From Bacteriovoracia bacterium (GTDB lineage Bacteria > Bdellovibrionota > UBA1018 > JBFWNL01): a stretch of DNA of 64,000 bases. The stretch is taken from contig JBFWNL010000006.1 in the NCBI GenBank assembly GCA_050251055.1, forward strand, positions 160,001 through 224,000. Direction: 5' to 3'. Shown here one piece after another: positions 37,212 through 57,669 of the stretch. Both the position numbers and the translations under genes were made by a program. The notes beneath the pieces were generated by a model. The model did not search any database and was not told where the DNA came from. It saw nothing but the letters and a program-made list of their open reading frames with translations. Within the stretch, counting starts at the first letter, position 1. Every line of letters starts with the position of its first letter.

Positions 37212-37230
37212 GTTCTTACCCCTATAACTA

Positions 37231-37511
37231 ATCCTAACTAAAATAATCGGATATTAGAAGCAAAATCTTAATAATGAAAAGAAATATTTCCTAAAAATAT
37301 AATTAATATCAATTAGTTATATTTTAATAAACTAAATAACTTTATTGAATCAAGATAAATTGAGTAGCTAAGTTGGCTGAAAAACAAGCTAGGCTTCAAA
37401 AAAAGATATAAAAAAATCATTTAATTTAGTTTAATTTAATTAATATCAAATAGTTATAAATTATTCTTGGCTACAAAATATCTTGATTATTTTAGTCCGA
37501 ACGTCTACAGT
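37231..37511. promoter_or_regulatory. AT-rich divergent control region with two IHF-consensus sites and repeated operator-like motifs
   Basis: TATCAATTAGTTA (37307-37319), TATCAAATAGTTA (37444-37456); TTGGCTnnAAAA at 37373 and 37467; rightward TTGATT-N17-TACAGT (37483-37511); weaker leftward TTCTAA-N17-TAGGAT (37259-37231). Confidence 0.7.
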
Positions 37512-37524
37512 CAATCTTAGCCCC

Positions 37525-37588
37525 GCCCACGCATGGAGCATTCACCTTCGGCCCCAACAGATTTCTCCATGCGTGGGCCCCCTTTTTT
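37525..37588 (+). terminator. Terminator-like leader hairpin (attenuator or short RNA end)
   Basis: GCCCACGCATGGAG / CTCCATGCGTGGGC 14-bp stem, then CCCC-TTTTTT, between promoter and ORF 37637. Confidence 0.5.
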
Positions 37589-37636
37589 GCTGCGTGAAAA
37601 CGGTGTGTTGAACCGCTAAGGTGGAAAGCGGTCTTT

Positions 37637-38692
37637 ATGAGATCTTCATGGCTCCTCAGCTTGGGTCTGATCCTGGCGTCGGCCTGTGGAACCCAATTCC
37701 ATCGCCCCACCTTGAGTTCGGACTATTTTCTCGCGCTTACGAACAGCGGCATCGAGGTATTTGAACTCGACGTGGCCGGAATCACGTTGGTGAAGAAAGG
37801 AAGCATCGCGGTCGAGAACGCGGGCACCCTGAACACGGTCATGGCCGTCGGGACGCCTTCGCGGTTGCTGTTGGGCAAACAGGAGTTGACCTGGTCGAGC
37901 TTCCAGCCCCTGTCGCCGTCGATGACCGCGTTGACCACGTTGAATCTGGCGCTCTCTCCATCGGCTTTGTTCTATCAGCCAGACCGAAATCTCCTTTTCG
38001 TCACGATCGCCGGCACGACGGACACCATTCAGGTGATTTCTGTCGAGGGTGATTCCTTACGATCGCTCGGTTCTTTTTCTCCCGGAGACAACCCACGCTC
38101 GGTGGTGGCGATGTCGGGCAGTGATTTCATTTACACGAGCGTCGGAAATAGCAAAACCCTGAAAGGCTACCGCATCGATGGTGCTTCGGGTGCCGGCGTC
38201 GCCGTGGATTCGAAAACTATCACGGGCACGCCTGGTTTTCTGCGGATTGGAGTAGACGATCACGTGCTGATCACCCACGCTTCTACCCCCCACGAACTTC
38301 TGGCGTATTCGATCGAGGCGAACTCGGGCGCGTTTTCCCTCGCCGACTCCGTGAGCCTATCGGCCGCGCCCGTCGCGATTGACTATCACGCCGCCACCCG
38401 AAGGGTGGCCGTGCAGGCGTTGTCGGGTGAGATTCAGTTGTATCGATTCAACGCCACTACCCGGCGCCTGGAGTTAGTTGGAAGCGATCACTCGACGTCG
38501 GGCTACGTGGCTTTTAAGGACAATATGCTCGCCTTCGATGCCAGCGGGAGCTACTTGGCCGCTTACGAACAGGTCAGCCGGGAGCTCGTGGTGTTCCGCG
38601 TGATAGATACGGGGTTGGCCCCGGTGCTACGCCAAGCGGCGGACTCTGGAATCACGGGAATTTCCTTTACGCGCTTCTTGTCGGACATTTAG
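37637..38692 (+). CDS. Lipoprotein, beta-propeller (lactonase-like fold)
   Basis: Lipobox LASAC; repeated blades (YRIDGASG, YSIEANSG, YRFNATT, AFDASGSYL). Confidence 0.75.
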   Translation: MRSSWLLSLGLILASACGTQFHRPTLSSDYFLALTNSGIEVFELDVAGITLVKKGSIAVENAGTLNTVMAVGTPSRLLLGKQELTWSSFQPLSPSMTALTTLNLALSPSALFYQPDRNLLFVTIAGTTDTIQVISVEGDSLRSLGSFSPGDNPRSVVAMSGSDFIYTSVGNSKTLKGYRIDGASGAGVAVDSKTITGTPGFLRIGVDDHVLITHASTPHELLAYSIEANSGAFSLADSVSLSAAPVAIDYHAATRRVAVQALSGEIQLYRFNATTRRLELVGSDHSTSGYVAFKDNMLAFDASGSYLAAYEQVSRELVVFRVIDTGLAPVLRQAADSGITGISFTRFLSDI

Positions 38693-40743
38693 GGAGCGAT
38701 CCACAGGTAGCGCATATCTTCAAACAAGGTGTGATCGCAGTTCGCGTTCGCGCCTGATCGGACCGTGAGGCGCACTTCCACGTCGGGGCTTCCGTTCACC
38801 CCTTGTCCGCTCATTTCGCCGAAGTAACTTTTTTTGCCGGCCCCGCGACCCAAGGCCCCGGAAAATGCCTCTCCCCCGCGTCCGCGGGTGTGGCCCCAGA
38901 AGCCGCTATTGATCTCGACGCCTTCGCCGCATTCCGCATAAGCCGACATGCCCGCTTGCAGGAAGAGAAAGGTCCGCAGGTGCGTGGGCACTGCTCGAAA
39001 CGGGAAGTATCCGCTGACCGTGGAGGGCGCCGCGTACGGCGGGTGGACGAAAAAGCCAGTCGAGACCGAGCCTCCTCCTGAGAGGGGGTAGCCGTTTCCG
39101 CTCCTCACGTAGCCTTGCGCGGGCGTCGAATTTTGTCCGTACCACAGCTGACGGCCGGAAGGATTCGTGGGGTCGGTCGCCCACCAAAAGGTGTTTGGGT
39201 TCGTGACGCGATCATGGAGCGGCCGCGCGACGACGCGCGCGTTTCCTAATATAACGTGGTCGCAACCAGAATTCCCCTGGCTGTCGGCGACCACCCGGAT
39301 CGTAAGCGTGCGTCCGCGCAGGTCGCGAAGTGAAGCCAAGAAGGAGACACGCCCGGCATTGCGCGGGATCGTGACTTGATGAAGCAGCGTGAGGGGCACG
39401 CCCGTGCCGTGCGCGTAAACGCTCAGGCGCGCGCCATTGCCGCAGGTAGATGCGGCCGATAGCCCTACGTCCGCGTAAAGATAATAAGCGCGGTCCGCAG
39501 CCAGCAAAAGTCCGGGGAAATCCCCGGTAATCGACGAGTTGTTTCGGCCCGGCAGGATCATCCGGGTTCCCGAGACCGTCCCCCCTCCCGAGAGCGCATG
39601 GTTATTCACGGGTTCGACGGCGCCGAGCGGATTCGTCCAGGGCTGATCGATTGGGACGCTAGTGCCCTGGTCGTTTGTCCAGCTGGCGCGCGCGTGGTTG
39701 AAGCGGTTGTCCGACCTCGGCCCTTCGTAAACCAGGTGCTGGGTCGTGGCGTCGAAGAGCTGGGGGCAGGCGTCGATATTATATTCGAACCACGGATGGC
39801 TTGGCGCCCAATCCGGTCCGAGCTGAAAGATGTGGTAGTAGCTGAATCCCGCGATTTGGTTTTCGCGGCCGATGCTTCGTAGCGCGGTTCGGACGTCGTT
39901 GCCGTTGGCGATTGTGTTGCGCCAGCCGCAACCCTGTTCGCGCCCCGCCGAAGTGTAAAGGACCGGCACGAGGGGTTTATTTAGCATGCCCAGCCGATTC
40001 AGGTCGGCGACGTAAATTTCCTGATGCCCGTCGCGGTAGTCGTAATCATCGATCCAGAGGGCGTCGTAGCTATGCGGGGTGAAGTAATGTTGGTAGCGCT
40101 CTTCGATGTCCGCTGCGGTGAGCGGGCGGCGATCAGCGGGCGCACGGTCTTGCTGCGCGTAGTACGGCGCCCAAGTTTGCGTGATGGCCACGGGGCGCGC
40201 CTGGATGTTCGGATCCAGCTGGCGAAGTCGATTGTAGATGCGGATCTGCGCGGCATTCGGGATGCTCCATTGTCCTGGCTCGTCGTGCGTGTAGTAACCC
40301 ACGAATAGATCCGCGTTTTGGAGTACGGTTTGTACCGCCGCCGTGAGCGGCGCCCAGTCGGCCGCGGTGGGGTGCTCGGGGCAGTAGCCCGGATACATTT
40401 GATTCGTGTTCGAGTTCCAGATGGGCGGGTTGCAGATCGCCCAGACGGGCGTACCGACGTTGGCGATCCACTTGAATTTCCTGAGCGTGGCGTGGCCGCG
40501 GATGATTTGAATCGTGTTCGCGTCTTGCACGGAGTTTCCGGTGATATTAACCAGGAGCGCGTTCAGTCCGAACGCGTTGAGATCATCGAGCAGCTTGAGG
40601 TTTTCGACGGTGAGATTCGCCGGATCCCGTTGGGGATAGGCGACGCGAAAATTCGGCGGATAGAGCTCCGTGGCCCCGGCGCTCGACGCAGCCATGCCGA
40701 GCATCCCTAGGGCTCTGAGAAGCGACCCGATTTTAATGCGCAC
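38689..40743 (-). CDS. Secreted protein: putative glycoside-hydrolase-like N-domain plus two NPCBM-like beta-sandwich repeats
   Basis: Signal peptide; GYYTHDEPG; duplicated LSGGG...VG(L/M)SA..CG.G...CDH modules. Confidence 0.65.
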   Translation of the reverse strand: MRIKIGSLLRALGMLGMAASSAGATELYPPNFRVAYPQRDPANLTVENLKLLDDLNAFGLNALLVNITGNSVQDANTIQIIRGHATLRKFKWIANVGTPVWAICNPPIWNSNTNQMYPGYCPEHPTAADWAPLTAAVQTVLQNADLFVGYYTHDEPGQWSIPNAAQIRIYNRLRQLDPNIQARPVAITQTWAPYYAQQDRAPADRRPLTAADIEERYQHYFTPHSYDALWIDDYDYRDGHQEIYVADLNRLGMLNKPLVPVLYTSAGREQGCGWRNTIANGNDVRTALRSIGRENQIAGFSYYHIFQLGPDWAPSHPWFEYNIDACPQLFDATTQHLVYEGPRSDNRFNHARASWTNDQGTSVPIDQPWTNPLGAVEPVNNHALSGGGTVSGTRMILPGRNNSSITGDFPGLLLAADRAYYLYADVGLSAASTCGNGARLSVYAHGTGVPLTLLHQVTIPRNAGRVSFLASLRDLRGRTLTIRVVADSQGNSGCDHVILGNARVVARPLHDRVTNPNTFWWATDPTNPSGRQLWYGQNSTPAQGYVRSGNGYPLSGGGSVSTGFFVHPPYAAPSTVSGYFPFRAVPTHLRTFLFLQAGMSAYAECGEGVEINSGFWGHTRGRGGEAFSGALGRGAGKKSYFGEMSGQGVNGSPDVEVRLTVRSGANANCDHTLFEDMRYLWIAP

Positions 40744-40883
40744 GAAAATGCCCCCTCGGAAAGTAGGTTCCCGGCCAAGTTCGGGGGCAGAGACAGGCTT
40801 GGCCTTGTCTTTAGCCTACCAGCGCCGGGGCGCGGAAAAAATGTGTCCTTATTGTCCTAGGGGGCTTTTTCGCCGAGGGTCGC

Positions 40884-41354
40884 CTAAATTCGCTTATAAA
40901 CGCACGCCTCGGAGGCCTTATCTTTGGCTTTGTAGCTTACCGTGAGTTGGTTCTTTTTCCTCGTGGTCGAAGTACGGCTCTGTTCCGTCTCGAATAGGAA
41001 TAAAGTGTTCTTGTGAATGTATTTGGAGACCAGGGAAGACGTGTTTCCGCTGTCGCGATAGCATTGATTGATCAAGGGGTTTCCCTTGTTCACGCAATCG
41101 TAGGCTTTCTGGTTCATGTGTTGGATCAGGTACGAGTACATTTGATTGAATTCTTTCTCTTCGCTGGTCGCGTTGAGATCGCCTTTCTCATCCACGGCGT
41201 ACTCAAAAGTGGCCGGGCACTTTCCGTCCAGAATGGTCTCGCCGGAAACCTTCTCGTACTTTCCTACGTAAGCGGGAAAGGGACTGGCCGCGAAAGCGTT
41301 GGTGGAAGACGTCAAAGCGAGAGAAAACGCGAGAAACAAAAATGCTTTCTGCAT
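40884..41354 (-). CDS. Secreted hypothetical protein
   Basis: AAGGAG RBS, signal peptide AFA, four Cys. Confidence 0.7.
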   Translation of the reverse strand: MQKAFLFLAFSLALTSSTNAFAASPFPAYVGKYEKVSGETILDGKCPATFEYAVDEKGDLNATSEEKEFNQMYSYLIQHMNQKAYDCVNKGNPLINQCYRDSGNTSSLVSKYIHKNTLFLFETEQSRTSTTRKKNQLTVSYKAKDKASEACVYKRI

Positions 41355-41517
41355 GGATTACTCCTTATTTTGTTCGCCCGCAGGATCTTTCCCGTCGCTT
41401 CCTATAGATGAATTAACTCGGTGTGTCAATTCAAAAGAATCTGGCTCCTATATCTGTTTTTAAAGTGCCTGATCTCCGAGAGGCGGATATTTTCCATGTG
41501 TTCCAGAAGGAGGCCCC

Positions 41518-42501
41518 GTGCTGAAGCAAGACCCCGTCTCTTGGCTTTATCCTGAAACCGCCCCGTACCGCACGGGCCGGCTTGCCGTAGGCGATGGCCA
41601 TGAAATTTATTACGAGGAGTGCGGTAATCCGGCGGGTAAGCCCGCGGTTTTTCTCCATGGTGGTCCGGGGAGCGGAATTTTCCCCCGGCATCGGCGTGTG
41701 TTTGATCCCGAACGTTACCGGATCGTGCTTTTCGACCAACGTGGCTGCGGCCAGAGCACGCCTCGGGGATCTATCGAACACAACACGACCTGGCACCTGG
41801 TTTCGGACATTGAAAAGCTGCGCGAGCATCTCGGCATTGAGCGTTGGCTGGTGTTCGGCGGGTCGTGGGGATCCACGTTGGCGCTTGCCTACGCGCAGAC
41901 CCATCCTTCTTCGGTGACGGAGATGGTGATGCTAGGGATTTTCCTGCTTCGTAAACGCGAGATCGCTTGGTTTTATCAGGATGGTGCTTCCTTTCTTTTT
42001 CCCGACGCCTATGAAGAATACGTGAAACCCATTCCGCCGGCGGAGCGAGGCGATCTACTCGCGGCTTTTCACCGGCGATTGGGTTCGGCGGATGCGCGCG
42101 AACGAATGGAGGCCGCCAAAGCGTGGACGTTGTGGGAAGGAAAGACCATCACGCTCTTGCCGAATCCGGATCTCGTGAAGGCATTTAGCGCAGATGAGTT
42201 CGCGGCGACGTTCGCCCGCATGGAAACGCACTACTTCATGAACCAGGGTTTCTTTGAATCGGAAGACCAGCTACTCCGGGGCGTGGATAAAATTCGGCAT
42301 GTGCCCGCCACCATTATACATGGGCGGTACGATGCCTGTTGCCCGCTCGAGACCGCCTGGCTTCTGCACAAAGCTTGGCCGGAAGCGGATTTCACGATCG
42401 TCCCGGACGCGGGTCACGCGTTTGCGGACGCCGCGAACGCGCGTGCGGTGATCAAGGCGACCGACCTTTACGCCCGTCTATGGCGGAAAATCGACAAATG
42501 A
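41518..42501 (+). CDS. pip: Proline iminopeptidase
   Basis: HGGPG, FDQRGCGQS, NTTWHLVSDIE, GGSWGSTL, HGRYD, DAGH. Confidence 0.95.
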   Translation: MLKQDPVSWLYPETAPYRTGRLAVGDGHEIYYEECGNPAGKPAVFLHGGPGSGIFPRHRRVFDPERYRIVLFDQRGCGQSTPRGSIEHNTTWHLVSDIEKLREHLGIERWLVFGGSWGSTLALAYAQTHPSSVTEMVMLGIFLLRKREIAWFYQDGASFLFPDAYEEYVKPIPPAERGDLLAAFHRRLGSADARERMEAAKAWTLWEGKTITLLPNPDLVKAFSADEFAATFARMETHYFMNQGFFESEDQLLRGVDKIRHVPATIIHGRYDACCPLETAWLLHKAWPEADFTIVPDAGHAFADAANARAVIKATDLYARLWRKIDK

Positions 42502-42747
42502 CGCCTTAAGAATTTGGCTTAGATCTCGCGCAAACTTCCGCAGAGTTAATTTTCAAAAACGAGAGCGAACTGTTTTTCTTCCACAATCGAACTAGTTTTG
42601 ACTCGTTGCGTATTGATTTTACGCGTCGCAGTACATCTTGAATACTTTTAGTTTCTTAAGCCAATTTCAATTTGTGAAAACTAAAGTTCTGGATATCATT
42701 ATGTCAAAGTATCAACAGTAAACGAAAAGGAAGAGGAATAAGAAGGT

Positions 42748-43677
42748 ATGAAATTAACACGTTTATGGACGATCTGTGCGGTAGCTGGACTCCTGAGCCA
42801 AAGCGTTTGGGCTGATACGAAATTCAGCGGATTCGCGGATGCACAACTTGGCTGGGCAAAACAAAATTCTCGCGGATTTACGATTTACGATGGCGCGGTC
42901 TACGTAGACTCCTCCATGGACTCCGCGAGCTTTAAGCTCGATCTTCCGTTTTCGGGCGGCGGCGCGAACAACAACTTCGCGTTCGCGACCGGCAAAGCGC
43001 AAGCTTACTTCAACCACAAGATGGGCAGCCTTTCGTGGCAGATGGGTCAATTCGACCATAGCTACGGCTACGCCGGCAACGACAGCGTGGGCTACTTCCA
43101 CGCTCGCCAAGGCGCCTTGCACACGGCGGCTTATAACTCGATCATGACCCACACGGGCCTGAAGCTCGCTTACATGTTCAGCGACGCTTTCTCGTTCAAC
43201 GTGGTTGTGTCCGATCCGAACGCCTCCGGCACCATCGGCACCAACAACTTCGAATACGGCGGCCAGCTCGTTTACAACTCGAGCGGCACCATGTTCAAGG
43301 CCGGTTACCTGTTCAATAAGGGCGCGCTCAAGAACAACACGCTCTTGAACGTCGGCGCGGGCACCAAGATGGGCGCCTGGGACTTGAACCTCGATTTCGC
43401 TTTGAAGGACACCACCGCTCAAGTGGATAGCTCGCTCGGCTTCGCCGGCGATTTCATCTACAACATGACGGACAGCTACGGCTTGGGTCTTCGCGCGGAA
43501 TACCTCTCGAAGTTCACCAACTATAGCCAAATCGACCTGACCCTGGGCTCCAAGCACAAGCTGACCCAGAACCTGACTTTCAAGGCCGGTTTCAACTACC
43601 AGAGCGCCACCGCCGTCTCCGGCGGCACCTCGGCTTCGTCCTACGGACTGGACTTGGCCGGCGTCTACGGATTCTAG
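42748..43677 (+). CDS. Outer-membrane beta-barrel porin
   Basis: Signal peptide, amphipathic strands, LGLRAEY, terminal Phe; strongly biased codon use suggests high expression. Confidence 0.85.
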   Translation: MKLTRLWTICAVAGLLSQSVWADTKFSGFADAQLGWAKQNSRGFTIYDGAVYVDSSMDSASFKLDLPFSGGGANNNFAFATGKAQAYFNHKMGSLSWQMGQFDHSYGYAGNDSVGYFHARQGALHTAAYNSIMTHTGLKLAYMFSDAFSFNVVVSDPNASGTIGTNNFEYGGQLVYNSSGTMFKAGYLFNKGALKNNTLLNVGAGTKMGAWDLNLDFALKDTTAQVDSSLGFAGDFIYNMTDSYGLGLRAEYLSKFTNYSQIDLTLGSKHKLTQNLTFKAGFNYQSATAVSGGTSASSYGLDLAGVYGF

Positions 43678-43694
43678 TTCGAACCGTATAGGCT

Positions 43695-43737
43695 AAAAAA
43701 TTACGGCGTAGCTCGAAAGGGCTACGCCGTTTTTTTT
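43695..43737. terminator. Bidirectional intrinsic terminator
   Basis: A-run, ACGGCGTAGC-TCGAAAGG-GCTACGCCGT, T-run between convergent genes. Confidence 0.85.
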
Positions 43738-43750
43738 GCCTAGTTTGCGT

Positions 43751-45415
43751 CTATTGGAGGGCGCGAGCGGCTTGGTTTCCCGACTGCACGGCGCCGTTCA
43801 TGTAGCCCTGATAGTGCTCGCTGACGTGCTCGCCGGCGAAAAGGAGCCGTCCCCCGAGCTCCGGCGTTTTTGCCGCTCCCATGATCGTCGTGTACTGGCC
43901 TACCCGAGGGCAAGCGTAGCTGCCCCGGGCGTACCCATACTGGCTCCAGTTGAACAAAACTTTGTTTCCGTCCGACGCTTGGCCTATGCCCGGGTGGATT
44001 TTCTCCAGGTGGGCGAGCAGCGCGGCCATGCCGCCGGCGATCCCCTTGCGGCCCGTGCTTCCGCCCGTGAAGTTCGTCATGATCCCGCTCGCGCCTTTCT
44101 GGGCGACGCTGCTGTCCCAAAAGCATTGCGAGGGCTGATCGGTGAATACGTAGCCCAGCGAAGCGGGAGTGTCGCCGTGGGGCTGACGCCAATACCTTTC
44201 TTTGAATCCCTGCATGTACTTTGAGTTGGTTCCGTATCCCAGCTCGCGGATGCACTGAAGCTTGGTGGGGCTGAGGCCGAGCTGATCGATGCCCTCGATC
44301 TCGCGGACCATGGTGAACGGCACCGCACAGATGACCTGCTTGGCCTTGCGCGTGACGACGGTGCCCGCCTTGAGAAACGTGAGCTCGAGGTCCGCGCCGG
44401 ACCCGCGGATCGCTCGCCAGCGGTGCTCGAGGTGCACTTTCACGCGCGGCTCGATCGCGCGCCCTAATGCTTCGATCAGGCGGGTGTTCCCGCCGCGGAT
44501 GCGCTTGGACTCGTCGCTTTCCCCGAAAATCCGGAACTCGGGATTTCCATCCGGCCCCCGGGGCATTTCGGGGCTTAGAAGTACAAGCAGATTGATGGAG
44601 GATTGTTCGGCGGCGTCGAGCCCGAATTCCCCGACGTAGGCCGCGTGAATGGCGTCGAGGACCCAGCCCGCGACGTCATTGCGCTTGGATTGCAGGTATT
44701 GCTCGAGGCTGATGCGATCGAATCGCTTCGCCTCCGGTCCGTGGCGATCGTACGTCACGATCGGTGAGCTTCCGTCCAGGAAAACCTTGGCGGCGTCTCG
44801 CTTCAAGTGCTCCGCCATGGGCGCGAATTCGCGTAGAATATCGGCCTCCCGATAAATTTTTCCGCCGAAGTGAAAGAGGTGGGGCGGGAGCGCGCGCATC
44901 TCGGGCAGGAAGTCATCGATGGGTACGCCGAGTTCAGCGGCGAGCTCAAGAATCTCTTTTTGAGTGGTGTCGATGAACTCACCGCCCAACTCGCAAAACA
45001 TCCCCTCGGCGTTGAATTGATCTTTCGTGAAAACCCGCCCCCCCAGGCGCGCCGCCGCTTCGTACACCTCGCAGGGAATTCCCGCCTGGCTCAAACGATA
45101 GGCGGCCGTGAGGCCCGCGAGCCCTCCGCCTAGGATCACCACCGGTTCGCCGCCTTGCATCGGCGCGGGGCCCTTCGCGGGTGAGCTCTTTCCGGTTGCG
45201 CATCCCGTGCTCGCTAGCAGGTAGGGAAGGGACGCCGTCGCGCCCGCGGCCAAGAGGGATTGCCGCGCGGCCTGGCGTAAAAATTCGCGACGGTCTTCTA
45301 AATAGGGATGACGCTGAATGAGATGAGCGTGGTTTAGCCACCGCTTCACGGACCGGAAAAATGGGGTTTTTGCCATAGGAACGGTTAAGTCTAGCGGCTG
45401 GATCCGGCTTGTCAA
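43751..45415 (-). CDS. Flavin-containing amine oxidase (MAO/LAAO family), Tat-exported
   Basis: RREFL Tat motif, GGGLAGL, RLGGRV, ELGGEFI, FAGEH, GYMNGAVQSG; true start probably downstream. Confidence 0.9.
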   Translation of the reverse strand: MTSRIQPLDLTVPMAKTPFFRSVKRWLNHAHLIQRHPYLEDRREFLRQAARQSLLAAGATASLPYLLASTGCATGKSSPAKGPAPMQGGEPVVILGGGLAGLTAAYRLSQAGIPCEVYEAAARLGGRVFTKDQFNAEGMFCELGGEFIDTTQKEILELAAELGVPIDDFLPEMRALPPHLFHFGGKIYREADILREFAPMAEHLKRDAAKVFLDGSSPIVTYDRHGPEAKRFDRISLEQYLQSKRNDVAGWVLDAIHAAYVGEFGLDAAEQSSINLLVLLSPEMPRGPDGNPEFRIFGESDESKRIRGGNTRLIEALGRAIEPRVKVHLEHRWRAIRGSGADLELTFLKAGTVVTRKAKQVICAVPFTMVREIEGIDQLGLSPTKLQCIRELGYGTNSKYMQGFKERYWRQPHGDTPASLGYVFTDQPSQCFWDSSVAQKGASGIMTNFTGGSTGRKGIAGGMAALLAHLEKIHPGIGQASDGNKVLFNWSQYGYARGSYACPRVGQYTTIMGAAKTPELGGRLLFAGEHVSEHYQGYMNGAVQSGNQAARALQ

Positions 45416-45457
45416 AAACGAAGTGGCGAATGCGGATTGCTCGGGTATGATTTCGCG

Positions 45458-48919: not shown

Positions 48920-49003
48920 GAGGCTTTTATCCTAACAACATTTTACCGGGCATATAAGGACAAAAGCGGGCGCGGGCGCGAAAGCCTTCCGGCTCGGTCA
49001 GGC

Positions 49004-49813: not shown

Positions 49814-49844
49814 GGAGGCCCCAAACAACAGACTTATATAGTCA

Positions 49845-49873
49845 ATTATGAGGTTGAGGCTCTGAATTGTCAA
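49845..49873 (-). promoter_or_regulatory. sigma70 promoter for lipoprotein 2
   Basis: TTGACA-N17-CATAAT. Confidence 0.65.
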
Positions 49874-49893
49874 TGCTTCCAAAGACTTTTGGT

Positions 49894-50757
49894 TCATATT
49901 TTCCCTTGTGATTTCTTTGGGTTATCGGATTCTACCACGGGGAAAGCGACGAAGCTGACGTGATAGACGGAGGAGCGCCCCTCTTGGGCCTGGGTGATTC
50001 CGCGGATTTCGTTCATGGCGCGTTCCATGACTTCCTTCACGGCGCCGAACGTGTCCGGATGCATTCCGATGGTGAAGCCAAGGATGTTACGGTCGTCGCG
50101 TGGCGTGCTGTGAATGGATTCGACCGCCATGCCCAGCATGGTTTTGTGGAATTCCGAAAGCGCCAGGCGATAAATCTGGCCGTCGCAGTCGACGGACTTG
50201 CCTTCGGGGAATCCGGCATCGGATTTTCCCATGCGGGCGACGAAGCCGTGCTTTAGCAGGAAGTCGATCGCATGCTGGATTTCACGCAGGCTCACTTTCG
50301 CCTTGAGGCGCGCTTGAATCCAGCGCGCTTCCAGCTGAAAATGCGCGAATCCCGCCATCTCGCGAATCACGACGTAATACCAACGGCTGAGGTATCGGTA
50401 GGCTTCGAATTCCTTCGGATTGTGCCGGCGATAGATTCCGAAGCGCTGCAGTTTTCGGTAGGCGCGTTGACGATCTTCGGTGGGGTTTTTTTCCGAAAGC
50501 TGTCGCAGCGACTGGAAGAACGAAGTCTCGGACTCGTTCAAGTCCATGTGCCGAAGCAGTTGCCGGGCGACGTCGTCGGTGAGCGCGCGCTTTCCGTTCA
50601 TCACGAGCGGCAGGAAACCCTCGGAGAATTTCGCGCGGCGGGCGAACTCCCGGACCGATGTTCCATCCTGCGTTTTTTTAAACGCGAACCAGTCACGCAG
50701 GAAAGCGCGGTGGTCGTGGTACTGGTGGATGTCGGGGCGCCCCCCGGTGCCTTTCAT
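49894..50757 (-). CDS. TIGR02147-family protein, paralogue 2
   Basis: RPDIHQYHDHRAFLRDW, SVREFARRA HTH, WYYVVIREM, VYHVSFVAFP. Confidence 0.9.
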   Translation of the reverse strand: MKGTGGRPDIHQYHDHRAFLRDWFAFKKTQDGTSVREFARRAKFSEGFLPLVMNGKRALTDDVARQLLRHMDLNESETSFFQSLRQLSEKNPTEDRQRAYRKLQRFGIYRRHNPKEFEAYRYLSRWYYVVIREMAGFAHFQLEARWIQARLKAKVSLREIQHAIDFLLKHGFVARMGKSDAGFPEGKSVDCDGQIYRLALSEFHKTMLGMAVESIHSTPRDDRNILGFTIGMHPDTFGAVKEVMERAMNEIRGITQAQEGRSSVYHVSFVAFPVVESDNPKKSQGKI

Positions 50758-50763
50758 GTTTTG

Positions 50764-51059
50764 ATGATATCACCTCGGAAAATACCGCGTCAAATAATGC
50801 ATTCATAAATAGAGATTAAATACAAAAGGCACCCCTAGATATTTATATAAACATTTGAATTTTATATTTTTTTTAAAAAAATAAATTAAATCGCATTCAT
50901 ATTTTAAGAAATTATTTCTACCAATCTGCAATTTGCATTCAAATAATAAGATTCAATTAGTATAAATATGTATAAATATTTGTTTTTATTTAATTATTTA
51001 AAAAAACGCATTCAAATCCAAAGTTATTATTTGACAAAAACACTCCAGAATCGTATGTT
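50764..51059. promoter_or_regulatory. AT-rich divergent control region with four phased GCATTCA repeats
   Basis: Leftward TTGACG-N18-TATCAT with extended TG (50793-50764); rightward TTGACA-N17-TATGTT (51031-51059); GCATTCA at 50799, 50893, 50935, 51008. Confidence 0.72.
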
Positions 51060-51081
51060 GTTCCTGTACTCGTGAAACACG

Positions 51082-51159
51082 CCCCCGAAGCACGAGACCA
51101 TCCGCCTCCAGGATTTCCGATTGGCGGAAGTTCTGGAGGTGGGCTCGGTCGTTCGGGGG
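51082..51159 (+). ncRNA. Structured 5' leader RNA (long G-U-containing hairpin)
   Basis: CCCCCGAA/TTCGGGGG, CGAG/CTCG and 18-bp inner stem CCGCCTCCAGGATTTCCG/CGGAAGTTCTGGAGGTGG with three G-U pairs. Confidence 0.45.
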
Positions 51160-51190
51160 AAATTGCCAGGGGCAATGAAGGGAGAGGGAG

Positions 51191-52984
51191 ATGGGGAAGG
51201 CTTTTAATCTTGGTTGGAAGGTGGCGATGGTCGCGGTCGGCTCGGGAGCGTGGAGTGGTTACGCTTTCGCCGAGGGCGAGAGCTTGAAGATCACGACCCC
51301 CGCGCGTCCCGCCTACATCAACGCCGCCACGGATCGGGTTCGGTATCCCGTTACGGGGACCTGCGAAGACCGAGGTGGCGTAGTGCGGATGACGAGTCCG
51401 CTCGCGTTGGATCTCCCCTGCGTAAAGGGCCGCTTTTCCGCCCAGATCGACGTGTCCGGCCGCCGAAGCGGCGCATTTTCCTTGCGGGTAGAGCAGGATG
51501 TCGCCGGCGATACGAAGTTCGGTGGTCATCTCCCGACCATCCACTTGCAAGACGACGTGACGGTGAACGTGGATTTAGTTCCGCCGACGATCACCTTTAA
51601 TACGCAAAATATTGATCTCTACACGGTGAATCGCCATTCCATGCAGATTCGTTGCTCCGATGTGGCGCAACCCATCGAAGTCACCGCCGGTGGCGCGGTG
51701 GTTTACCGTGGGCGTTGCGCCTTGGCGAATCAGTTCTACGAGGTGAACTTGGATCTCGGAGAGATCGCGGATGGAAATCTGCAGATCCAGGTTCGCCACG
51801 AAGACGCCGCGGGAAACCCCCAGACCGCGAGCCAGCAGCGGAATAAATCCATGCGGTTTACCCCGTGGACTCAAGCGCATTCCGTCGATCGAGCCGGGCA
51901 TCGTTATCTCTTGGGGAATTCCTCGGTCCGCAATCTCGTCGTCTGCGAGCAGCCGACGGGAGAGCGCGTGGGCATGATTCCACAGACCGTCGGTTCCGGA
52001 GCAAGGTCTGCGGTTTCCAAGAACGGGCAGTTCTTGCTGGTTTTCGGCGCGGGGGGATTTCAACGGATTGCCCCTGACTGCTCGGAATCACTGGGTGGCT
52101 TTGCCCTGCCGTCCGAGATGACTTCGGCGGATTTCGTCAAGGTTTCGGACCAAGGTCAAATCTATGCGTTTCGAAGTGGCGCGCACATGGGCAGCTCGGA
52201 CACGGGTCCCGCGCACCTATTGCGATACAATCTACAAGGTGCCCTGATTTCCCAAGCGAGCTACGCGCCAGATCTCTGCGACTCGCTTTCGAGTTCTTGG
52301 GTCGCGGAGATCGCGAGTTTTCAGGTGAATCCGGACTCGGGCAAGGCGTTCCTGATGTGCTCTTCGACCCGCATGGACCCCGCTGGAAACAGCACTCAGT
52401 TCATCAACGTGGCCGAAGTGGGCGAAGGTTTCCAGATCGGTGCGTGGCAGGCGGTCGATACGCTCCAGTTCATATACGGAAACGGAGCGGAGTCTGCGCG
52501 CATGGAGATTAACGGCGTGGGTGACCTCATGGTTTACTACGGACTCAACTGGCAGGGCGCCCACTACATCCAAGCCCGTACGCTTCGCGGCGCGATCTGG
52601 AGCGCACGTACGAACTTGATGGTCGGGTCCACGAACCAGCTGGTGATCCCCGACGACGAAAGCTTCGTGATCGTCGCCGAGTCGCTCACCCAGACGGCAC
52701 AAAATTGCGGTCGCCCGGCTAATTTCCGCGCGGCTCTGTTGAGCTACGTGCGGGCGGGAGCCGCGTTGAGTCCCGGCTCATCCGCACGCACCCTTGCCAC
52801 GGCGGCGGAAACGGTGCCGGCGGGCGGTTGCCGCTTGGAGCTCGATCGCTCGACGTTGCGGCTCGACGACGCTGGTCACAGTTACGGGTTCGCGAATATC
52901 TATGACGGCACCTACTGGGCGCCGGTGCTGATGCAAGATCCCAACGCGAATGCCTCGATCCTGCAGCTTCTAGGGATGGATTGA
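51191..52984 (+). CDS. Secreted protein with two Ig-like repeats and a C-terminal beta-rich domain
   Basis: Signal peptide AFA; YPVTGTCE, VEQDVAGD, DLVPPTITF, HEDAAGN. Confidence 0.75.
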   Translation: MGKAFNLGWKVAMVAVGSGAWSGYAFAEGESLKITTPARPAYINAATDRVRYPVTGTCEDRGGVVRMTSPLALDLPCVKGRFSAQIDVSGRRSGAFSLRVEQDVAGDTKFGGHLPTIHLQDDVTVNVDLVPPTITFNTQNIDLYTVNRHSMQIRCSDVAQPIEVTAGGAVVYRGRCALANQFYEVNLDLGEIADGNLQIQVRHEDAAGNPQTASQQRNKSMRFTPWTQAHSVDRAGHRYLLGNSSVRNLVVCEQPTGERVGMIPQTVGSGARSAVSKNGQFLLVFGAGGFQRIAPDCSESLGGFALPSEMTSADFVKVSDQGQIYAFRSGAHMGSSDTGPAHLLRYNLQGALISQASYAPDLCDSLSSSWVAEIASFQVNPDSGKAFLMCSSTRMDPAGNSTQFINVAEVGEGFQIGAWQAVDTLQFIYGNGAESARMEINGVGDLMVYYGLNWQGAHYIQARTLRGAIWSARTNLMVGSTNQLVIPDDESFVIVAESLTQTAQNCGRPANFRAALLSYVRAGAALSPGSSARTLATAAETVPAGGCRLELDRSTLRLDDAGHSYGFANIYDGTYWAPVLMQDPNANASILQLLGMD

Positions 52985-52999
52985 TCTCTCTCTAACCTC

Positions 53000-53028
53000 G
53001 TGGCCGGGGCGATGATCGCCCCGGCCAC
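53000..53028 (+). repeat. Intergenic GC-rich perfect hairpin without U-tract
   Basis: GTGGCCGGGGCGA-TGA-TCGCCCCGGCCAC. Confidence 0.7.
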
Positions 53029-53039
53029 ACCCCCGCTTA

Positions 53040-54032
53040 ATGGAGGTAGGAGTTATGCTTCAAGTCCTTTTCGCCATGGGTTTACTCGCTTTACTCGCGC
53101 TCAATACGACTTCGGTGATCTTCCAAGGCCAAATTGGTGGTGTGCAAAATCGAACGATCGGTGAGGTCAATAGTCTGCATAATCTCCTGAACCAAATCAC
53201 CACTCATGCGGAAGCCTGTCGGCAGCTTTTTGGAAGTATCGATCTTTCAGGTTTGGTGGGCCGAGATGCTCCGGTAGAAATACCAGTCGCCCTCGAGCTG
53301 CCCGGGGTAATCAGTCTGCGCGCGGGGACCGAGCTCCCCGGATCGTTGATTCGACTGCAGAGCGTGGGGATTCGCGAAGCCGTGCGCGTGTCGCCATTTC
53401 GTCCGGTGTACCAGGTTCGCCTGCGCGTCGGTCTGGGTCTCCGGGACCTGACGGAGCGTTTGCGTCTCAATCGTCCGGATATATCGATCCCCGTACAGCT
53501 CATTGCTGATGAAAGGGGCATCGTACGTGATTGCGGGGGAATTCCCACCGACGCCGATCCACCCCGATACTCCGTCATTCGCTGCGCGAAAACGTTCACC
53601 CGCCAGTTTGTTTCAGAGTGGTTCGACCGTAACACCTACCGCAACTCTCGGCCGGGGCAACGGATCGCGGGCTGGAATTATATGAATTTCGCCAAGTTCC
53701 TTCCGTCCGAATGCGATGGCGGGCAGTTGCCGGACGAAAGCTACGAAGGCCAAGTGCAGTCGTCCGTGGTTTGTGGTGCTTCCGGAGTGATGGCAGTCCT
53801 AAATGCGGGGGATCTGCCGTTTCGTCCCGAGGTTCTTTTCGGTGGGATCGAGCCCGCTTATCTGCGCGGTCCCGGCGTCGTTTGGTACTACTCGAGCTGG
53901 AGCTCGGGCGCCTGCGAGCGCGACATGGGGTACGGTGACCAGGGAGTGATCGCCGTCACCTATGTTCGGCGTCAAGGCCCGGGGCGGGTCATGGGGGTCC
54001 CCTTGGCCCAGGTCGGCGAGCTGATTCACTAG
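53040..54032 (+). CDS. Pilin-like protein with degenerate prepilin leader
   Basis: N-terminal hydrophobic helix, ACRQLF and DERGIVRDCGG match the other two pilin-like proteins; start may be 53055 (GGAGG/AGGAG RBS). Confidence 0.65.
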   Translation: MEVGVMLQVLFAMGLLALLALNTTSVIFQGQIGGVQNRTIGEVNSLHNLLNQITTHAEACRQLFGSIDLSGLVGRDAPVEIPVALELPGVISLRAGTELPGSLIRLQSVGIREAVRVSPFRPVYQVRLRVGLGLRDLTERLRLNRPDISIPVQLIADERGIVRDCGGIPTDADPPRYSVIRCAKTFTRQFVSEWFDRNTYRNSRPGQRIAGWNYMNFAKFLPSECDGGQLPDESYEGQVQSSVVCGASGVMAVLNAGDLPFRPEVLFGGIEPAYLRGPGVVWYYSSWSSGACERDMGYGDQGVIAVTYVRRQGPGRVMGVPLAQVGELIH

Positions 54033-54063
54033 TGCATATCGACGAAGATCGGCGCCCCGGTTT

Positions 54064-54507
54064 TCAACCCTCCACTAATGTGGCCACTAGTAAAACCAAG
54101 CCGGTTTTCGGGTCCAGGTAAGTGATGCTGCCGCCGTTGAGGTGATTTTCGAACTTTATTTTCCAGACTTCTCCTGCCGCCGGTAGATTTTCCAATCGAC
54201 CATACCGAATGGCGTGAGCGTTGTTCTTCAATAGCGACTGGACGAAGTTGATTGCGTCGTTAGCTTTTGATCGTTGCACCACGGGAGATCCCACTTTTGG
54301 TTCGTTCAGCTTGGGTGGCAGGTTGACGTGAAAGTGCCGGCGGACGGATTTTTCCGGCTGAGTCTTTATCCATTCTACATAGACGGAAAATGCGGCCTCG
54401 GGCGTGCGGATTTCTTTATTCACGGGCTTACCCCCTCCCGCCGCCCAGGTTTCCATGAAAACCAGCATTGAGACCACGGCGACAAAGTAAAAATCGATAC
54501 GGCTCAT
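54064..54507 (-). CDS. Secreted hypothetical protein
   Basis: Signal peptide; AAGGAA RBS directly after the prepilin gene. Confidence 0.65.
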   Translation of the reverse strand: MSRIDFYFVAVVSMLVFMETWAAGGGKPVNKEIRTPEAAFSVYVEWIKTQPEKSVRRHFHVNLPPKLNEPKVGSPVVQRSKANDAINFVQSLLKNNAHAIRYGRLENLPAAGEVWKIKFENHLNGGSITYLDPKTGLVLLVATLVEG

Positions 54508-54516
54508 AAAACTTCC

Positions 54517-56658
54517 TTACTCGGTGAACTTGAGTTTGAAGCATTTGAACTCGCAGCGGATACCCATGTTTCGCTTACGCGCGACGTGGTAGCGCCACTC
54601 CGTGATTTTTCCGGTGGCGTCGAGGATGGGTGCGATGTGACAGAGCCCGCCCTTGAGCTGTTCGGCGTCGCTCGCGCTCCCGGAGTTTCCGAACCGGCTT
54701 TCGTTGTAGAATTTGATATCGCACCAGTCGTAGGGCGTGCCGTCGCTCGAATTGGGAATGGGCCGGCATCGCTCCGGGGTCCCGCTCGGGCTAAAGCAGC
54801 TGTTGCCGGTGGGCTGAGTTCCGCCCGCCCATCCTTCCACGCGCTCGTAGTCGCCGCCGGATTTGTCCCCGCAGTTTCCGAGCGCGTCGATGTCGCCGGA
54901 GGGGCACATATCGGATCGCATCGCTTCAAAGCCCGTCGGTTCGAGTCCCGCGCCGAGCTGGGCGGGCAGCACCACGCGCTGGGAGAGGAATACTTCCATG
55001 CGGGGCGCCGCCCACTTCGCTTGCCCATTGGCGCTAACCGCGGCTAGAACCTTATTCGGGGCCGGCGTACCCATGTCCGCGGCGTCCAGGCGAAACGCCG
55101 TTTGGGCACCCGTCGAAGTCGCCTGCGAAAGAATGATGCGGCCCCGGCCATCCATCGCCGCGAGCACTTGTCCGCCGTTTCCTCCGCTGCAGCTGCCGGC
55201 GAGTGTACAGTTGCGTAGCTCCAGGCGGCCGGCTCCTTCGTCGCCCGGGGCGGCCGAGTTAATGGTTTCCGAAAGGCGGGCCACCCAATTCGCGTTGGCG
55301 TACGCACCGGGCTGCTCCGGATCGGCGTGAAAAATGGCGAACCCGTTGTTTTTTCCGGGCAAAGAATTCGGCCCGATCGAGCGATACTCCTTGGCGCGAA
55401 CGTCGAGGTGCGCGCCAAGCGCTCGATTCACGAAGGCGACGCGTTTGGGGGAGTTGCCGACGGTGGGAGAGCTCCATACGCCGAGCTCGAGCTGATTATT
55501 GCCGGAAGGATCTTTGCCGAAACCCGCGTAGGCTTCGCCCATGTAATCCGTGCCGCCGGCGGTGCTGGGCACGCGCGTGCCGAACTTGAAGAGTCCCGAA
55601 ATCCCAAAGGCGCCGGGCTCGGCGGGGCCTACTCCCGGGGGAAGGAATTCCGCCACGGCTCGAGGCGCCGCCCCGCGCGCTTTGTGCATGAGGCTGAATC
55701 CGTTCGCATCGCCCCCAAAAATCAGGGCGGGACGCTTAATCGCTCCGGTTTCTTCGATCATCCCAAATGCGGCGGTATTGGTCTGCCATTGGAGGTTCAG
55801 CCCACGGAAACCGCGCAGGTTCCAATCGCTGTTATTCGCGGCCTGAGTGACGGCGTTGAGTTCCGCGCGAGCGGGCGCCGTGCCTTGAATCCAGCGGCCT
55901 TTGGTCCAAAGCGACGAGGTCGCGGGACTGTCGATATCTCTGCCCACCCCTTTGTGCAGGGGGATGTCGGTGCCCGGGGTGTCGGTCAAGAGCATGCTAT
56001 CGCCGACGCAACGAAGCAGCCCAGTCGTCGGGTCGGGTACGAGCTCGCCCCCCATGGCCGAGCACTGCATGCCGGCGTCGTTGCCGCTGCCGTAGCAAGC
56101 CACGATTCGACCGGCGGGATCGGTTTCGAAGTAGATATTGGAAAACGTGCGGGAAAGCTGGCGCGATCCGTAACCCGCGTCCGCGGGCGTGCGGCCCATT
56201 TTCTCGGCATTGATCGTGATGCGGCCGAGATAGCGCCGGCAGTTTCCGCCGGCTCCGCACGTGAAATTTTCGACGAAGTTCGTTTCCCTTACGCGGATCT
56301 CATTCACCCGAATGCTCGAGGAAGGAAGGGTGGAATCGGCTAGCACGGAGATGTTCGGGCTTATACCTACGGCTAGCCGATTCCACTTCTTGTCGTAACC
56401 GCTCGTCCAGGTTTGCCAGCCCGGATCACCATCTGGGTTATTGGCGATGAGGGAAGAGCAGACCCGCTGATTCATGACGGCGGTTTCGACAGAATTTTGT
56501 ATGGATACCCATTCGGAGGAGAGCTGCGTGCCGCGGTTCGAGCGCGCGCCTTGCACCACCAGCGTGCTGGACAGGTACGCCGCGCCGCTGATCAGCCCCA
56601 GCACCAGCATCATTTCGATCAAGGAAAAACCGTTTTGATTTTTCGATGAAAGAGACAT
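54517..56658 (-). CDS. Large prepilin-type N-terminal cleavage/methylation domain protein
   Basis: NQNG|FSLIEMMLVLG canonical class III signal; GGAGG RBS before MSLSS; Cys-rich C-terminal domain. Confidence 0.85.
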   Translation of the reverse strand: MSLSSKNQNGFSLIEMMLVLGLISGAAYLSSTLVVQGARSNRGTQLSSEWVSIQNSVETAVMNQRVCSSLIANNPDGDPGWQTWTSGYDKKWNRLAVGISPNISVLADSTLPSSSIRVNEIRVRETNFVENFTCGAGGNCRRYLGRITINAEKMGRTPADAGYGSRQLSRTFSNIYFETDPAGRIVACYGSGNDAGMQCSAMGGELVPDPTTGLLRCVGDSMLLTDTPGTDIPLHKGVGRDIDSPATSSLWTKGRWIQGTAPARAELNAVTQAANNSDWNLRGFRGLNLQWQTNTAAFGMIEETGAIKRPALIFGGDANGFSLMHKARGAAPRAVAEFLPPGVGPAEPGAFGISGLFKFGTRVPSTAGGTDYMGEAYAGFGKDPSGNNQLELGVWSSPTVGNSPKRVAFVNRALGAHLDVRAKEYRSIGPNSLPGKNNGFAIFHADPEQPGAYANANWVARLSETINSAAPGDEGAGRLELRNCTLAGSCSGGNGGQVLAAMDGRGRIILSQATSTGAQTAFRLDAADMGTPAPNKVLAAVSANGQAKWAAPRMEVFLSQRVVLPAQLGAGLEPTGFEAMRSDMCPSGDIDALGNCGDKSGGDYERVEGWAGGTQPTGNSCFSPSGTPERCRPIPNSSDGTPYDWCDIKFYNESRFGNSGSASDAEQLKGGLCHIAPILDATGKITEWRYHVARKRNMGIRCEFKCFKLKFTE

Positions 56659-56683
56659 GACTTCCTCCCGCGTTTCCATCGGA

Positions 56684-56995
56684 TTAGAGACTTTGAACGC
56701 AGCTCGCCAAGCAGCTGGCTAATTCGGCCTCGAGTTGCTTCTTTTTGTCGCAGTTTGCCTGCGAGGTCATGAATAGGGTGGGTGGGCAAAAAATCGAGAA
56801 CAGTCCCACCAAGCCGCCGGCGTCTTCGTACTCACGAACCTTAGTGCCGAAGTCGTCGAAGCATTGCTGCGCGCATTCCAGGTCGGAATAGGTCGCTGGC
56901 GAAGGATTTTGTTTGGAGGCGGCGCCTTGGGCCACCTCAGTGCTTATGGAAACGAAAATTATTATCGCGAAGAGTTTTGTAAGAACCAGTTTCAT
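56684..56995 (-). CDS. Small secreted Cys-rich protein
   Basis: Signal peptide; CAQQC...C...C...CLASC; AAGGA RBS. Confidence 0.65.
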   Translation of the reverse strand: MKLVLTKLFAIIIFVSISTEVAQGAASKQNPSPATYSDLECAQQCFDDFGTKVREYEDAGGLVGLFSIFCPPTLFMTSQANCDKKKQLEAELASCLASCVQSL

Positions 56996-57133
56996 ATACG
57001 TCCTTTTTGTACGTTACTTGGGGGTGGAACCGGCCGCCGGGGCAAATATGGGAAACTTTCGGCGGCCGGTTCCTCGCTGGGCAAACGAATCAAAGTTCGG
57101 GTGACGCAATCCTATTTTGGGTTGCGACCTCGG

Positions 57134-57448
57134 TTATCGTTCGACTGAATTCGAGCTACCCACTGGGCGGGTGGCCTCGGGGACTAGGTACACCCGACAT
57201 CCGTAAATTTTGTAAGTACCCACGTATTCATCTTGGTAGGCGGCACAGAATTCCCACGTAGGCTTTGAGCCATCGGAAGGCCCGCAGAACGTGAACGCTT
57301 GGTTGCTGTTGTTGCCGTCGTCATGGCCTGCGCAGCGGCACCGCCACGAGCCTTCGCATTGGGCGGGCGCGGCTGCAAGCGCGTCGATAGTGACGCCTAA
57401 GTTCGAAACCGCCAGCCCCAATAAAAACATGAATTTTACGCCTCTCAT
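57134..57448 (-). CDS. Small secreted Cys-rich protein
   Basis: GGAGGGG RBS, signal peptide ALA, six Cys. Confidence 0.65.
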   Translation of the reverse strand: MRGVKFMFLLGLAVSNLGVTIDALAAAPAQCEGSWRCRCAGHDDGNNSNQAFTFCGPSDGSKPTWEFCAAYQDEYVGTYKIYGCRVYLVPEATRPVGSSNSVER

Positions 57449-57487
57449 CTACTTCCCCTCCCAGGTGCTTTGTTTTGGTACCTGTTC

Positions 57488-57669
57488 AGTATGTGGTGCA
57501 TTGCGTTATTAATCAATTTTTAGTAAGCAGTAACTAATAAAATTAATAAAAATTCTTTTATTTTAATATAGTTATAAATATAAACTTAATTAATTTAATT
57601 TATTAATAAATTTATAGTAAGCATTTAGGGTTGATTTTACTCGACGCAGCACGGGCTCCACGTCACAAT
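57488..57669. promoter_or_regulatory. AT-rich divergent control region with a TAGTAAGCA direct-repeat pair
   Basis: Leftward TTGATT-N17-CATACT (57516-57488); rightward TCGACG-N17-CACAAT (57641-57669); TAGTAAGCA at 57521 and 57615. Confidence 0.7.

Follow-up and report, generated by a model that had tools for sequence, protein, structure and literature searches.

Direct-repeat pairs about nine helical turns apart beside paralogous TIGR02147 regulator genes are candidate operator pairs in a Bacteriovoracia genome

We analysed a stretch of 64,000 nt (hereafter the window) of contig JBFWNL010000006.1 from a Bacteriovoracia bacterium (GenBank assembly GCA_050251055.1). The window contains three paralogous genes of the TIGR02147 family (147.7, 163.1 and 174.6 bits for paralogues 1, 2 and 3; NCBIfam cut-off 50), whose products also match the Pfam domain DUF4423 (PF14394; 76.4, 90.2 and 103.6 bits, gathering score 30). 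Each gene adjoins an AT-rich island of ~20–30% GC, in a genome of 57.8% GC, with a second gene on the other side: for regulators 1 and 2, encoded on the minus strand, this is a divergent plus-strand gene, and for regulator 3, encoded on the plus strand, a small divergent gene on the minus strand (Table 1). An earlier note on this DNA, made from the sequence without database searches, had described in each island a pair of direct repeats spaced exactly 94 bp apart and had read them as paralogue-specific operators bridged by an oligomer. The sequence bears out the coordinates and the 94-bp spacing of all three pairs, at 37373/37467 (TTGGCTGAAAAA/TTGGCTACAAAA), 50799/50893 (GCATTCATA) and 57521/57615 (TAGTAAGCA), each with a motif of its own. 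Below, S1 denotes the copy nearer to the divergent gene and S2 the copy nearer to the regulator gene; positions are those of the window unless prefixed by a contig (C1, C4, C9 and so on).

Repeat pairs were scored as ungapped self-matches weighted by information (in bits) and compared with dinucleotide shuffles. The third pair is a 24-nt repeat, identical at 22 of 24 positions, that scores 28.5 bits against a shuffle mean of 14.2 (standard deviation 2.1, maximum 20.2). Island 2 carries TGAATGC four times on one strand (50798, 50892, 50934 and 51007), a count reached in 2 of 2000 shuffles. The successive spacings of these copies are 94, 42 and 73 bp, the 94 of the earlier note being one chosen among them, and the 94-bp pair of this island is not significant alone (17.3 bits, shuffle mean 15.1). 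As a class the repeat pairs are confirmed, and the class reaches outside the window.

A profile search of the genome returned 36 TIGR02147 matches, 33 of them over the cut-off. The 12 best-scoring copies (E below 1e-69) have ordinary DNA upstream, and 20 of the 21 others have an AT-rich island directly upstream. For a held-out test we took 94 bp as the prior hypothesis and excluded the three window islands, leaving 17 islands upstream of other TIGR02147 genes. The best self-match fell at 92–96 bp in five of these (C9:103933, 95 bp; C4:329003, 96 bp; C1:552266, 94 bp; C1:211444, 96 bp; C6:158869, 94 bp), where shuffles gave a mean of 0.50 and a maximum of 4, and none of 100 reached 5; at C2:202074, 94 bp was the second-best shift. 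Across all AT islands of at least 130 bp (n = 46), the best shift was 94–96 bp for 6 of the 15 that precede a TIGR02147 gene, compared with 1 of the 30 located elsewhere. These counts overstate independence because the paralogues are related (C6:158869 is the sister of C2:202074, and a subclade unites C9, C4 and C1:552266). Genome-wide, same-core pairs of the word scaffold described below, with an AT-rich spacer, lie 94–96 bp apart in 8 of 18 cases; six of the remaining 10 are in region 2, and five of these six are that region's other spacings. The islands of the 16-member clade to which the island-bearing paralogues belong have 10–25% GC, and 16 of the 46 largest AT islands of the genome adjoin TIGR02147 genes.

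The exception among the control islands is itself informative. Within the island C10:82189-82350, the word of the C9:103933 paralogue (TTTTGTTAGC) occurs twice, at C10:82220 and C10:82316, 96 bp apart. By eye, the locus reads S1-16-TTGAGT-17-TAATCT and faces a small open reading frame with a hydrophobic N-terminus; beside S2 there is no TIGR02147 gene, and the 3' end of a same-strand gene lies there instead. This locus is likely a second target of the C9:103933 regulator. Since it keeps the 96-bp pair without a regulator gene, the pair persists as a unit without an autoregulated promoter, and we consider it the best evidence that a pair may act as a unit on the divergent promoter and not as two operators that serve separately.

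In the direction of the regulator gene, the words read AGTAAGCA, TGAATGCR, TGTAGCCA, TGTTAGCA, TGTAATCR, TGTATTCR, WGTAAGCG and TGTAGWCA. They share the 8-bp scaffold TGTAnnCR, which is the reverse complement of the TGnnTwC that had been proposed for the three window pairs. Each word is present at least twice only in its own island, and elsewhere, among 860 AT-rich segments, only in single copies, in agreement with the claim that the words are paralogue-specific. Two of these single copies adjoin the cognate regulator in the window (TGCTTACT at 58580-58587 and TGTAGCCAA at 35451). The helix strings SRGFL, SEGFL and SSGYL, put forward as recognition helices, are present in paralogues 1, 2 and 3, respectively, and where helices resemble each other the words do too: S.GY occurs together with GTAAGC in three paralogues of this genome, and PS[LH]LS together with TGTTCAC, paired at 22 bp, in four other genomes. 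This pairing would fit a neighbouring protein that reads the word, and shared descent explains it equally well, so that the readable protein–DNA code of the earlier note is so far a correlation.

The words also vary within pairs. At four of the eight pairs the copy by the divergent promoter ends in G and the copy by the regulator in A (TGTATTCG/A, TGAATGCG/A, TGTAATCG/A and, at C10, TGTTAGCG/A), and in the two GTAAGCG pairs it is the first base that varies (A/T). The islands C4:329003 and C1:552266 hold a third, inverted copy of the word 24–25 bp upstream of S2 (CGATTACA...TGTAATCA and TGAATACA...TGTATTCA), which forms a palindromic pair around the regulator's own promoter region. The C1:211444 island contains a single AAATGTAATCA, the word of the C4:329003 paralogue, and cross-regulation by that paralogue is possible.

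Spacing follows the helical repeat. Allowing up to one mismatch, copies on the same strand yield 16 spacings, mutually non-independent (22, 42, 52, 73, 83, 94 five times, 95, 96, 115, 136, 148 and 209 bp), and the phase resultant of this set is 0.91 at 10.5 bp (phase −0.02), compared with 0.50 at 10.0 bp and 0.56 at 11.0 bp. Those spacings that are independent of the 94–96 class (22, 42, 52, 73 and 83) deviate from a whole number of turns by no more than 0.1. The two S copies are in direct orientation and 94–96 bp is about 9.0 turns, which places S1 and S2 on the same face of the helix. The spacers between them contain 5–21% GC and are AT-rich, as had been claimed. They were also said to be bent: periodicity of A/T tracts in nine spacers (AA, TT and AA/TT power at 7–15 bp, 300 shuffles) showed no signal at 10–10.5 bp, and phased A-tracts as the source of a bend are not supported.

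We also placed the sites relative to promoter-like elements. The gap between S1 and a −35-like hexamer is 5 nt (region 3), 7 nt (region 1), 15 nt (C1:552266) or 16 nt (region 2, C9, C4 and C1:789782), and each such hexamer is followed by a 17-nt spacer and a −10-like hexamer. These distances agree with those the earlier note gave for the proximal copy, except that its 16 nt does not belong to a member of the 94-bp pair in region 2; it belongs to the fourth GCATTCA copy (51007-51014), before TTGACA at 51031. The divergent genes mostly encode proteins with a signal-peptide-like N-terminus. S2 lies 3–61 nt upstream of the regulator start codon in seven paralogues, while the S1–S2 distance stays within 94–96 bp. 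Some copies of the words overlap −10-like hexamers (TGTAAT, TAGCAT). Several regulator genes have no Shine–Dalgarno sequence and carry a −10-like hexamer that ends 6–7 nt before the start (C9:103933, C4:329003, C1:552266 and window 50757-50793), as in TGTAAT-CACTTT-ATG and TATCAT-6 nt-ATG; such starts suggest leaderless mRNAs, with the −10 overlapping or adjoining S2.

In a paralogue tree built by a quick maximum-likelihood search, the island-bearing paralogues group into one clade of 16 members (99% support), across which the 94–96-bp pairs are spread. The clade is deep, with protein branches of 0.3–1.7 changes per site, and its spacers cannot be aligned. That unalignable spacers nevertheless keep their length within 2 bp, or shift by about one turn (83 bp at C1:789782), argues for selection on distance. 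The nearest named relatives come from metagenome-assembled genomes (MAGs) of Bdellovibrionales, at 40% identity, and farther ones are labelled Myxococcota and Fibrobacteres. Upstream of 80 relatives in other genomes, the best shift was 22 or 23 bp in 10 regions (shuffle mean 1.5, maximum 5, 40 shuffles); the words at this spacing are often TGTTCAC-like and lie 50–110 nt upstream of the gene. Identical scaffold 8-mers were paired in 113 other-genome regions six times in forward and six times in reverse orientation, against 0.10 and 0.14 in shuffles, so that in other genomes the scaffold has no strict orientation with respect to the gene. A metagenome scan with paralogue 3 found no orthologous islands, and a second scan with an alignment returned one 38%-identical locus (L081), whose upstream sequence is coding-like and holds no repeat of interest.

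The proteins appear to combine an N-terminal XRE-type helix-turn-helix (HTH) with a middle resembling a winged helix and a C-terminal DUF4423 part, through which the modelled dimer forms. The structure of paralogue 3 was predicted with a pLDDT of 94 and a pTM of 0.85. Residues 10-95 resemble XRE-type HTH domains by profile (HigA, 2icp_A, E 5.8e-06; C.BclI, 0.0012; ClgR, 0.0023) and, under the clear level of the tool, by VIA fold comparison (Z 7.9 to 3pxp_A, root-mean-square deviation 3.2 over 81 aligned residues; 6.8 to DdrO), in which no Z of 8 or more was obtained. Pfam HTH_31 matched one paralogue only, at 20.5 bits, under its cut-off of 27, and a Foldseek search against the PDB gave no match at E ≤ 0.001, with weak XRE-type matches at E 0.16–0.8. 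Residues 112-190 resemble winged-helix domains at Z 6–7.6, a level that may reflect only a common arrangement, and for the part beyond these two stretches Foldseek and the profile search found no solved relative. As a homodimer, paralogue 3 scored 0.84, against 0.00 for the best of three controls, with an interface of residues 195-277 and 127-151, agreement between runs in at least 95% of contacts and a partner pLDDT of at least 82. Of 30 proteins with structures solved as pairs, 20 reach the mark used, as does 1 of 23 solved as single chains; these counts apply only roughly here, since the model was built on an alignment of our own. The model thus supports a homodimer, in keeping with the oligomer that had been postulated.

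On balance we favour, as rather likely, the hypothesis that the repeated words are cognate operator pairs to which the adjacent TIGR02147 regulator binds cooperatively, probably through a DNA loop. Its parts carry different weight. The words, their restriction to single loci, their spacing and phase, and where they lie with respect to promoter-like hexamers are observed in the sequence. That the neighbouring TIGR02147 protein binds the words is probable, and the operator reading is well supported in silico; for the bridging of S1 and S2 we consider the chances even, and a bridge or loop is plausible and better supported than independent sites. In the 16-member clade, a regulator gene sits back to back with a second gene across an AT-rich island, and where the nine-turn pair is present the island carries two 8-bp sites 94–96 bp apart, S1 lying 5–16 nt upstream of a −35-like hexamer that faces the divergent gene and S2 close to the start of the regulator gene. 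A single oligomer, either a dimer or a larger assembly, would hold S1 and S2 simultaneously and so loop or wrap the AT-rich, easily deformed spacer, and the looped spacer would couple control of the neighbouring gene to autoregulation. The position of S1, centred at about −45 to −56, weakly suggests activation of the divergent gene, and the label of activator used in the earlier note comes from site position only; the position of S2, over or next to the regulator's core promoter, weakly suggests autorepression in some paralogues.

Several observations weigh against this hypothesis. The 94–96-bp spacing has a single origin, in one clade, so that the paralogues are not independent, and even there the pair is undetectable in 5 of 16 members, one further member having 23 bp (C17:4864, TGTTCACA/TGTTGACA) and one 83 bp. 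Among the 80 relatives, no upstream region has its best shift at 92–96 bp (shuffle mean 2.17), which rules out a family-wide 94-bp peak, and the spacings of scaffold pairs in relatives (15, 22, 30, 69, 69, 91, 98, 123 and 152 bp) are unphased. The peak that had been expected near 94 bp upstream of TIGR02147 genes is confined to the one clade of this genome, and 22/23 bp is the enriched spacing in others; 'exactly 94' holds for the window pairs and becomes 94–96 in the clade. The first pair, which the earlier note had itself called the weakest match, is not above chance alone, as 88 of 200 shuffles reach its 10/12 identity. The scaffold was derived from the pairs and then counted, so that the 8 of 18 mainly shows that no other spacing class is hidden elsewhere, and the 96-bp repeat at C1:211444 (21 nt, 27.8 bits) lacks the scaffold. 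The named hexamers were read by eye or by a simple scoring script and several match at only 8/12; when the three regions were scanned for promoters and terminators, hits were no more numerous than shuffles would predict and no promoters other than the two of region 2 reached the scan threshold (10/12), and the S1-to-promoter layouts are therefore readings and not findings. The largest A/T-tract z in the nine spacers was 2.1, at 11.5 bp. Finally, the modelled dimer is symmetric through its C-terminal part and would suit direct repeats only with DNA that folds back on itself or with HTH domains on loose tethers.

Some of these points would fit two independent operators without bridging, S1 serving the divergent promoter and S2 that of the regulator, with 94–96 bp as the inherited geometry of an ancestral divergent-promoter cassette. 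The single-clade origin of the spacing, the overlap or close proximity, in several paralogues, of S2 and promoter-like elements of the regulator gene, and the 22/23-bp pairs of relatives, which lack the long spacing, all speak for this explanation, which we nonetheless regard as rather unlikely. Against it stand an S2-to-start gap that ranges from 3 to 61 nt while S1–S2 varies by 2 bp, the C10 locus with its 96-bp pair and no regulator gene at S2, extra copies and an 83-bp variant that differ by whole turns, and spacers that are saturated with substitutions and retain their length. That the words are bound not by the neighbouring TIGR02147 protein but by some other factor, such as a nucleoid protein, global regulator or alternative sigma factor, seems very unlikely to us: one shared protein could read a common scaffold TGTAnnCR, and some copies do overlap −10-like hexamers, yet the word differs by island and is paired only beside its own paralogue, both copies in an island change together, and similar helices go with similar words. 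Chance matches picked by eye from low-complexity AT-rich DNA would readily explain the first pair, and the second, which alone is about 1 standard deviation over the shuffle mean; as an account of the class, chance is contradicted by the held-out test, the control islands, the 28.5-bit repeat and the fourfold TGAATGC, and we give it almost no credence.

A bolder extension of the favoured hypothesis is tentative, and we think it will probably prove wrong in at least some part. Here the genome would hold about ten mutually insulated regulator–operator pairs built on TGTAnnCR, each with a private address of two or three variable bases that the beginning of the recognition helix reads. Each pair would close a nine-turn microloop of roughly nucleosome-like tightness in a spacer of 5–21% GC without phased bends, and an ancestral 22-bp two-site operator would have been lengthened in the clade by exactly seven turns.

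Short-loop repressors such as LacI at O1–O3 (92 bp), NagC at nagE-nagB and GalR at OE–OI use operators about 9–11 turns apart on the same face, some of them in divergent promoter regions. They belong to families unrelated to TIGR02147, and their operators are palindromic and bound by dimers within a tetramer, in contrast to the direct 8-mer repeats described here. Two marks of a looping regulator, at least two cognate words per control region and whole-turn spacing, are both present in the islands as sequence patterns of presumed binding sites. The closest known system is Rco of the Bacillus plasmid pLS20. Rco is an Xre-family protein whose gene is divergent from its target, with two operators across a 75-bp A/T-rich spacer; a 5-bp insertion abolishes regulation, the same protein autoregulates and controls the neighbour, each operator holds several copies of the motif, the protein forms a tetramer, and the spacer has a demonstrated static bend (PMC4207663). 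The TIGR02147 loci share with Rco the divergent gene layout and paired sites across an A/T-rich spacer, and their products probably share its N-terminal Xre-type HTH, all read here from the sequence. They differ from it in having one 8-bp word per site, an 86-bp spacer without A-tract phasing, a DUF4423 C-terminus, a protein modelled only as a dimer, and about ten paralogous pairs in one genome. The TIGR02147 N-terminal domain is also like those of the controller proteins C.AhdI, C.Esp1396I and C.BclI, of ClgR and of HigA antitoxins, by profile and weakly by fold (VIA Z 6.6–7.9); these are proteins of about 70–140 aa with adjacent inverted boxes, unlike TIGR02147 proteins, which at about 285 aa have an extra winged-helix-like and helical part.

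TIGR02147/DUF4423 is a widespread, much duplicated and uncharacterised family, with 33 copies in this genome and members in MAGs of Bdellovibrionota, Fibrobacterota and Myxococcota. We found no functional literature on TIGR02147, DUF4423 or PF14394; the DUF4423 protein Bd3700 is listed in a proteome table among proteins up-regulated during growth within prey. The analysis provides about ten paralogues with candidate binding words and likely target genes, along with a testable spacing rule. If the central bases and the helix residues co-vary, the family would offer a compact natural system for how paralogous regulators avoid cross-talk, and if the pairs are insulated they would be natural, readable orthogonal switches, each gating lineage-specific secreted proteins of a bacterium from a predatory lineage. 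Phased operators in divergent promoter regions are well known, so the value lies in opening a new family and not in a new principle.

Table 1. Regulator genes, sites, promoter-like elements and candidate target genes of the three regions (window positions).
Feature	Position	Strand	Details
TIGR02147 paralogue 1	36288..37211	-	307 aa; helix FSRGFL; 147.7 bits; DUF4423
AT-rich island 1, divergent control region	37212..37500		GC 0.21 over 37201-37500
Region 1 distal copy TTGGCTGAAAAA	37373..37384	-	weak; scaffold broken
Region 1 third related copy TAGGCTTCAAAA	37390..37401	-	77 bp from S1; shift of 77 scores 14.7 bits
Region 1 S1 TTGGCTACAAAA	37467..37478	-	scaffold TGGCTACA at 37468-37475; -35-like box 7 nt downstream
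Promoter-like TTGATT-17-TACAGT	37483..37511	+	faces 37637-38692; 8/12 match, under scan threshold
Candidate divergent target gene 1	37637..38692	+	lipoprotein-like N-terminus; weak lactonase beta-propeller match
Extra single copy TGTAGCCAA of region 1 word	35451..35459	+	next AT island, upstream of gene 33795-35300 (-)
TIGR02147 paralogue 2	49894..50757	-	287 aa; helix FSEGFL; 163.1 bits
Promoter-like TTGACG-18-(TG)TATCAT of regulator 2	50764..50793	-	10/12; -10 ends 6 nt before ATG at 50757, leaderless-like
Region 2 site TGAATGCA	50798..50805	-	4 nt upstream of regulator's own -35-like box
Region 2 site TGAATGCG	50892..50899	-	94 bp from site 50798..50805
Region 2 site TGAATGCA	50934..50941	-	42 bp beyond site 50892..50899
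Region 2 S1 TGAATGCG	51007..51014	-	73 bp beyond 50934..50941; -35 16 nt downstream
Promoter-like TTGACA-17-TATGTT	51031..51059	+	faces 51191-52984; 10/12
Candidate divergent target gene 2	51191..52984	+	597 aa; signal-peptide-like N-terminus; weak adhesin-repeat match
Candidate divergent target gene 3	57134..57448	-	104 aa; signal-peptide-like N-terminus
Promoter-like TTGATT-17-CATACT	57488..57516	-	faces 57134-57448; 8/12
Region 3 S1, 24-nt unit	57506..57529	+	ends in AGTAAGCA (57522-57529); 5 nt from -35-like box
Region 3 S2, second 24-nt unit	57600..57623	+	22/24 identical; AGTAAGCA at 57616-57623; 61 nt before ATG
TIGR02147 paralogue 3	57685..58545	+	286 aa; helix LSSGYL; 174.6 bits
Region 3 word, third copy TGCTTACT	58580..58587	-	6 nt upstream of TTGCTA-17-TATACT (58594-58622), before lipoprotein-like gene 58656-59270 (+)

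Most genes neighbouring the islands had no Pfam match. A 720-aa protein encoded at 54517-56679 (-) has a prepilin-type N-terminal cleavage/methylation motif. An Rfam scan gave no match in the islands and a single match in the window, a tRNA at 29996-30082 (+). Between TTGATT-17-TACAGT and the start of the gene at 37637, positions 37525-37590 (+) hold a hairpin with a 14-bp stem followed by CCCCCUUUUUU; its fold energy is −41.3 kcal/mol (z −1.78), it has no Rfam match and is unlisted by the terminator scan. Its form resembles that of a terminator, an attenuator or the 3' part of an RNA of ~70 nt. Region 1 also contains a 26-nt direct repeat at 37296-37321 and 37433-37458, 137 bp or ~13 turns apart (29.9 bits), whose word differs from the operator. 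Both copies include TATCAAnnnnTTA, a possible IHF site that fits the consensus WATCAANNNNTTR.

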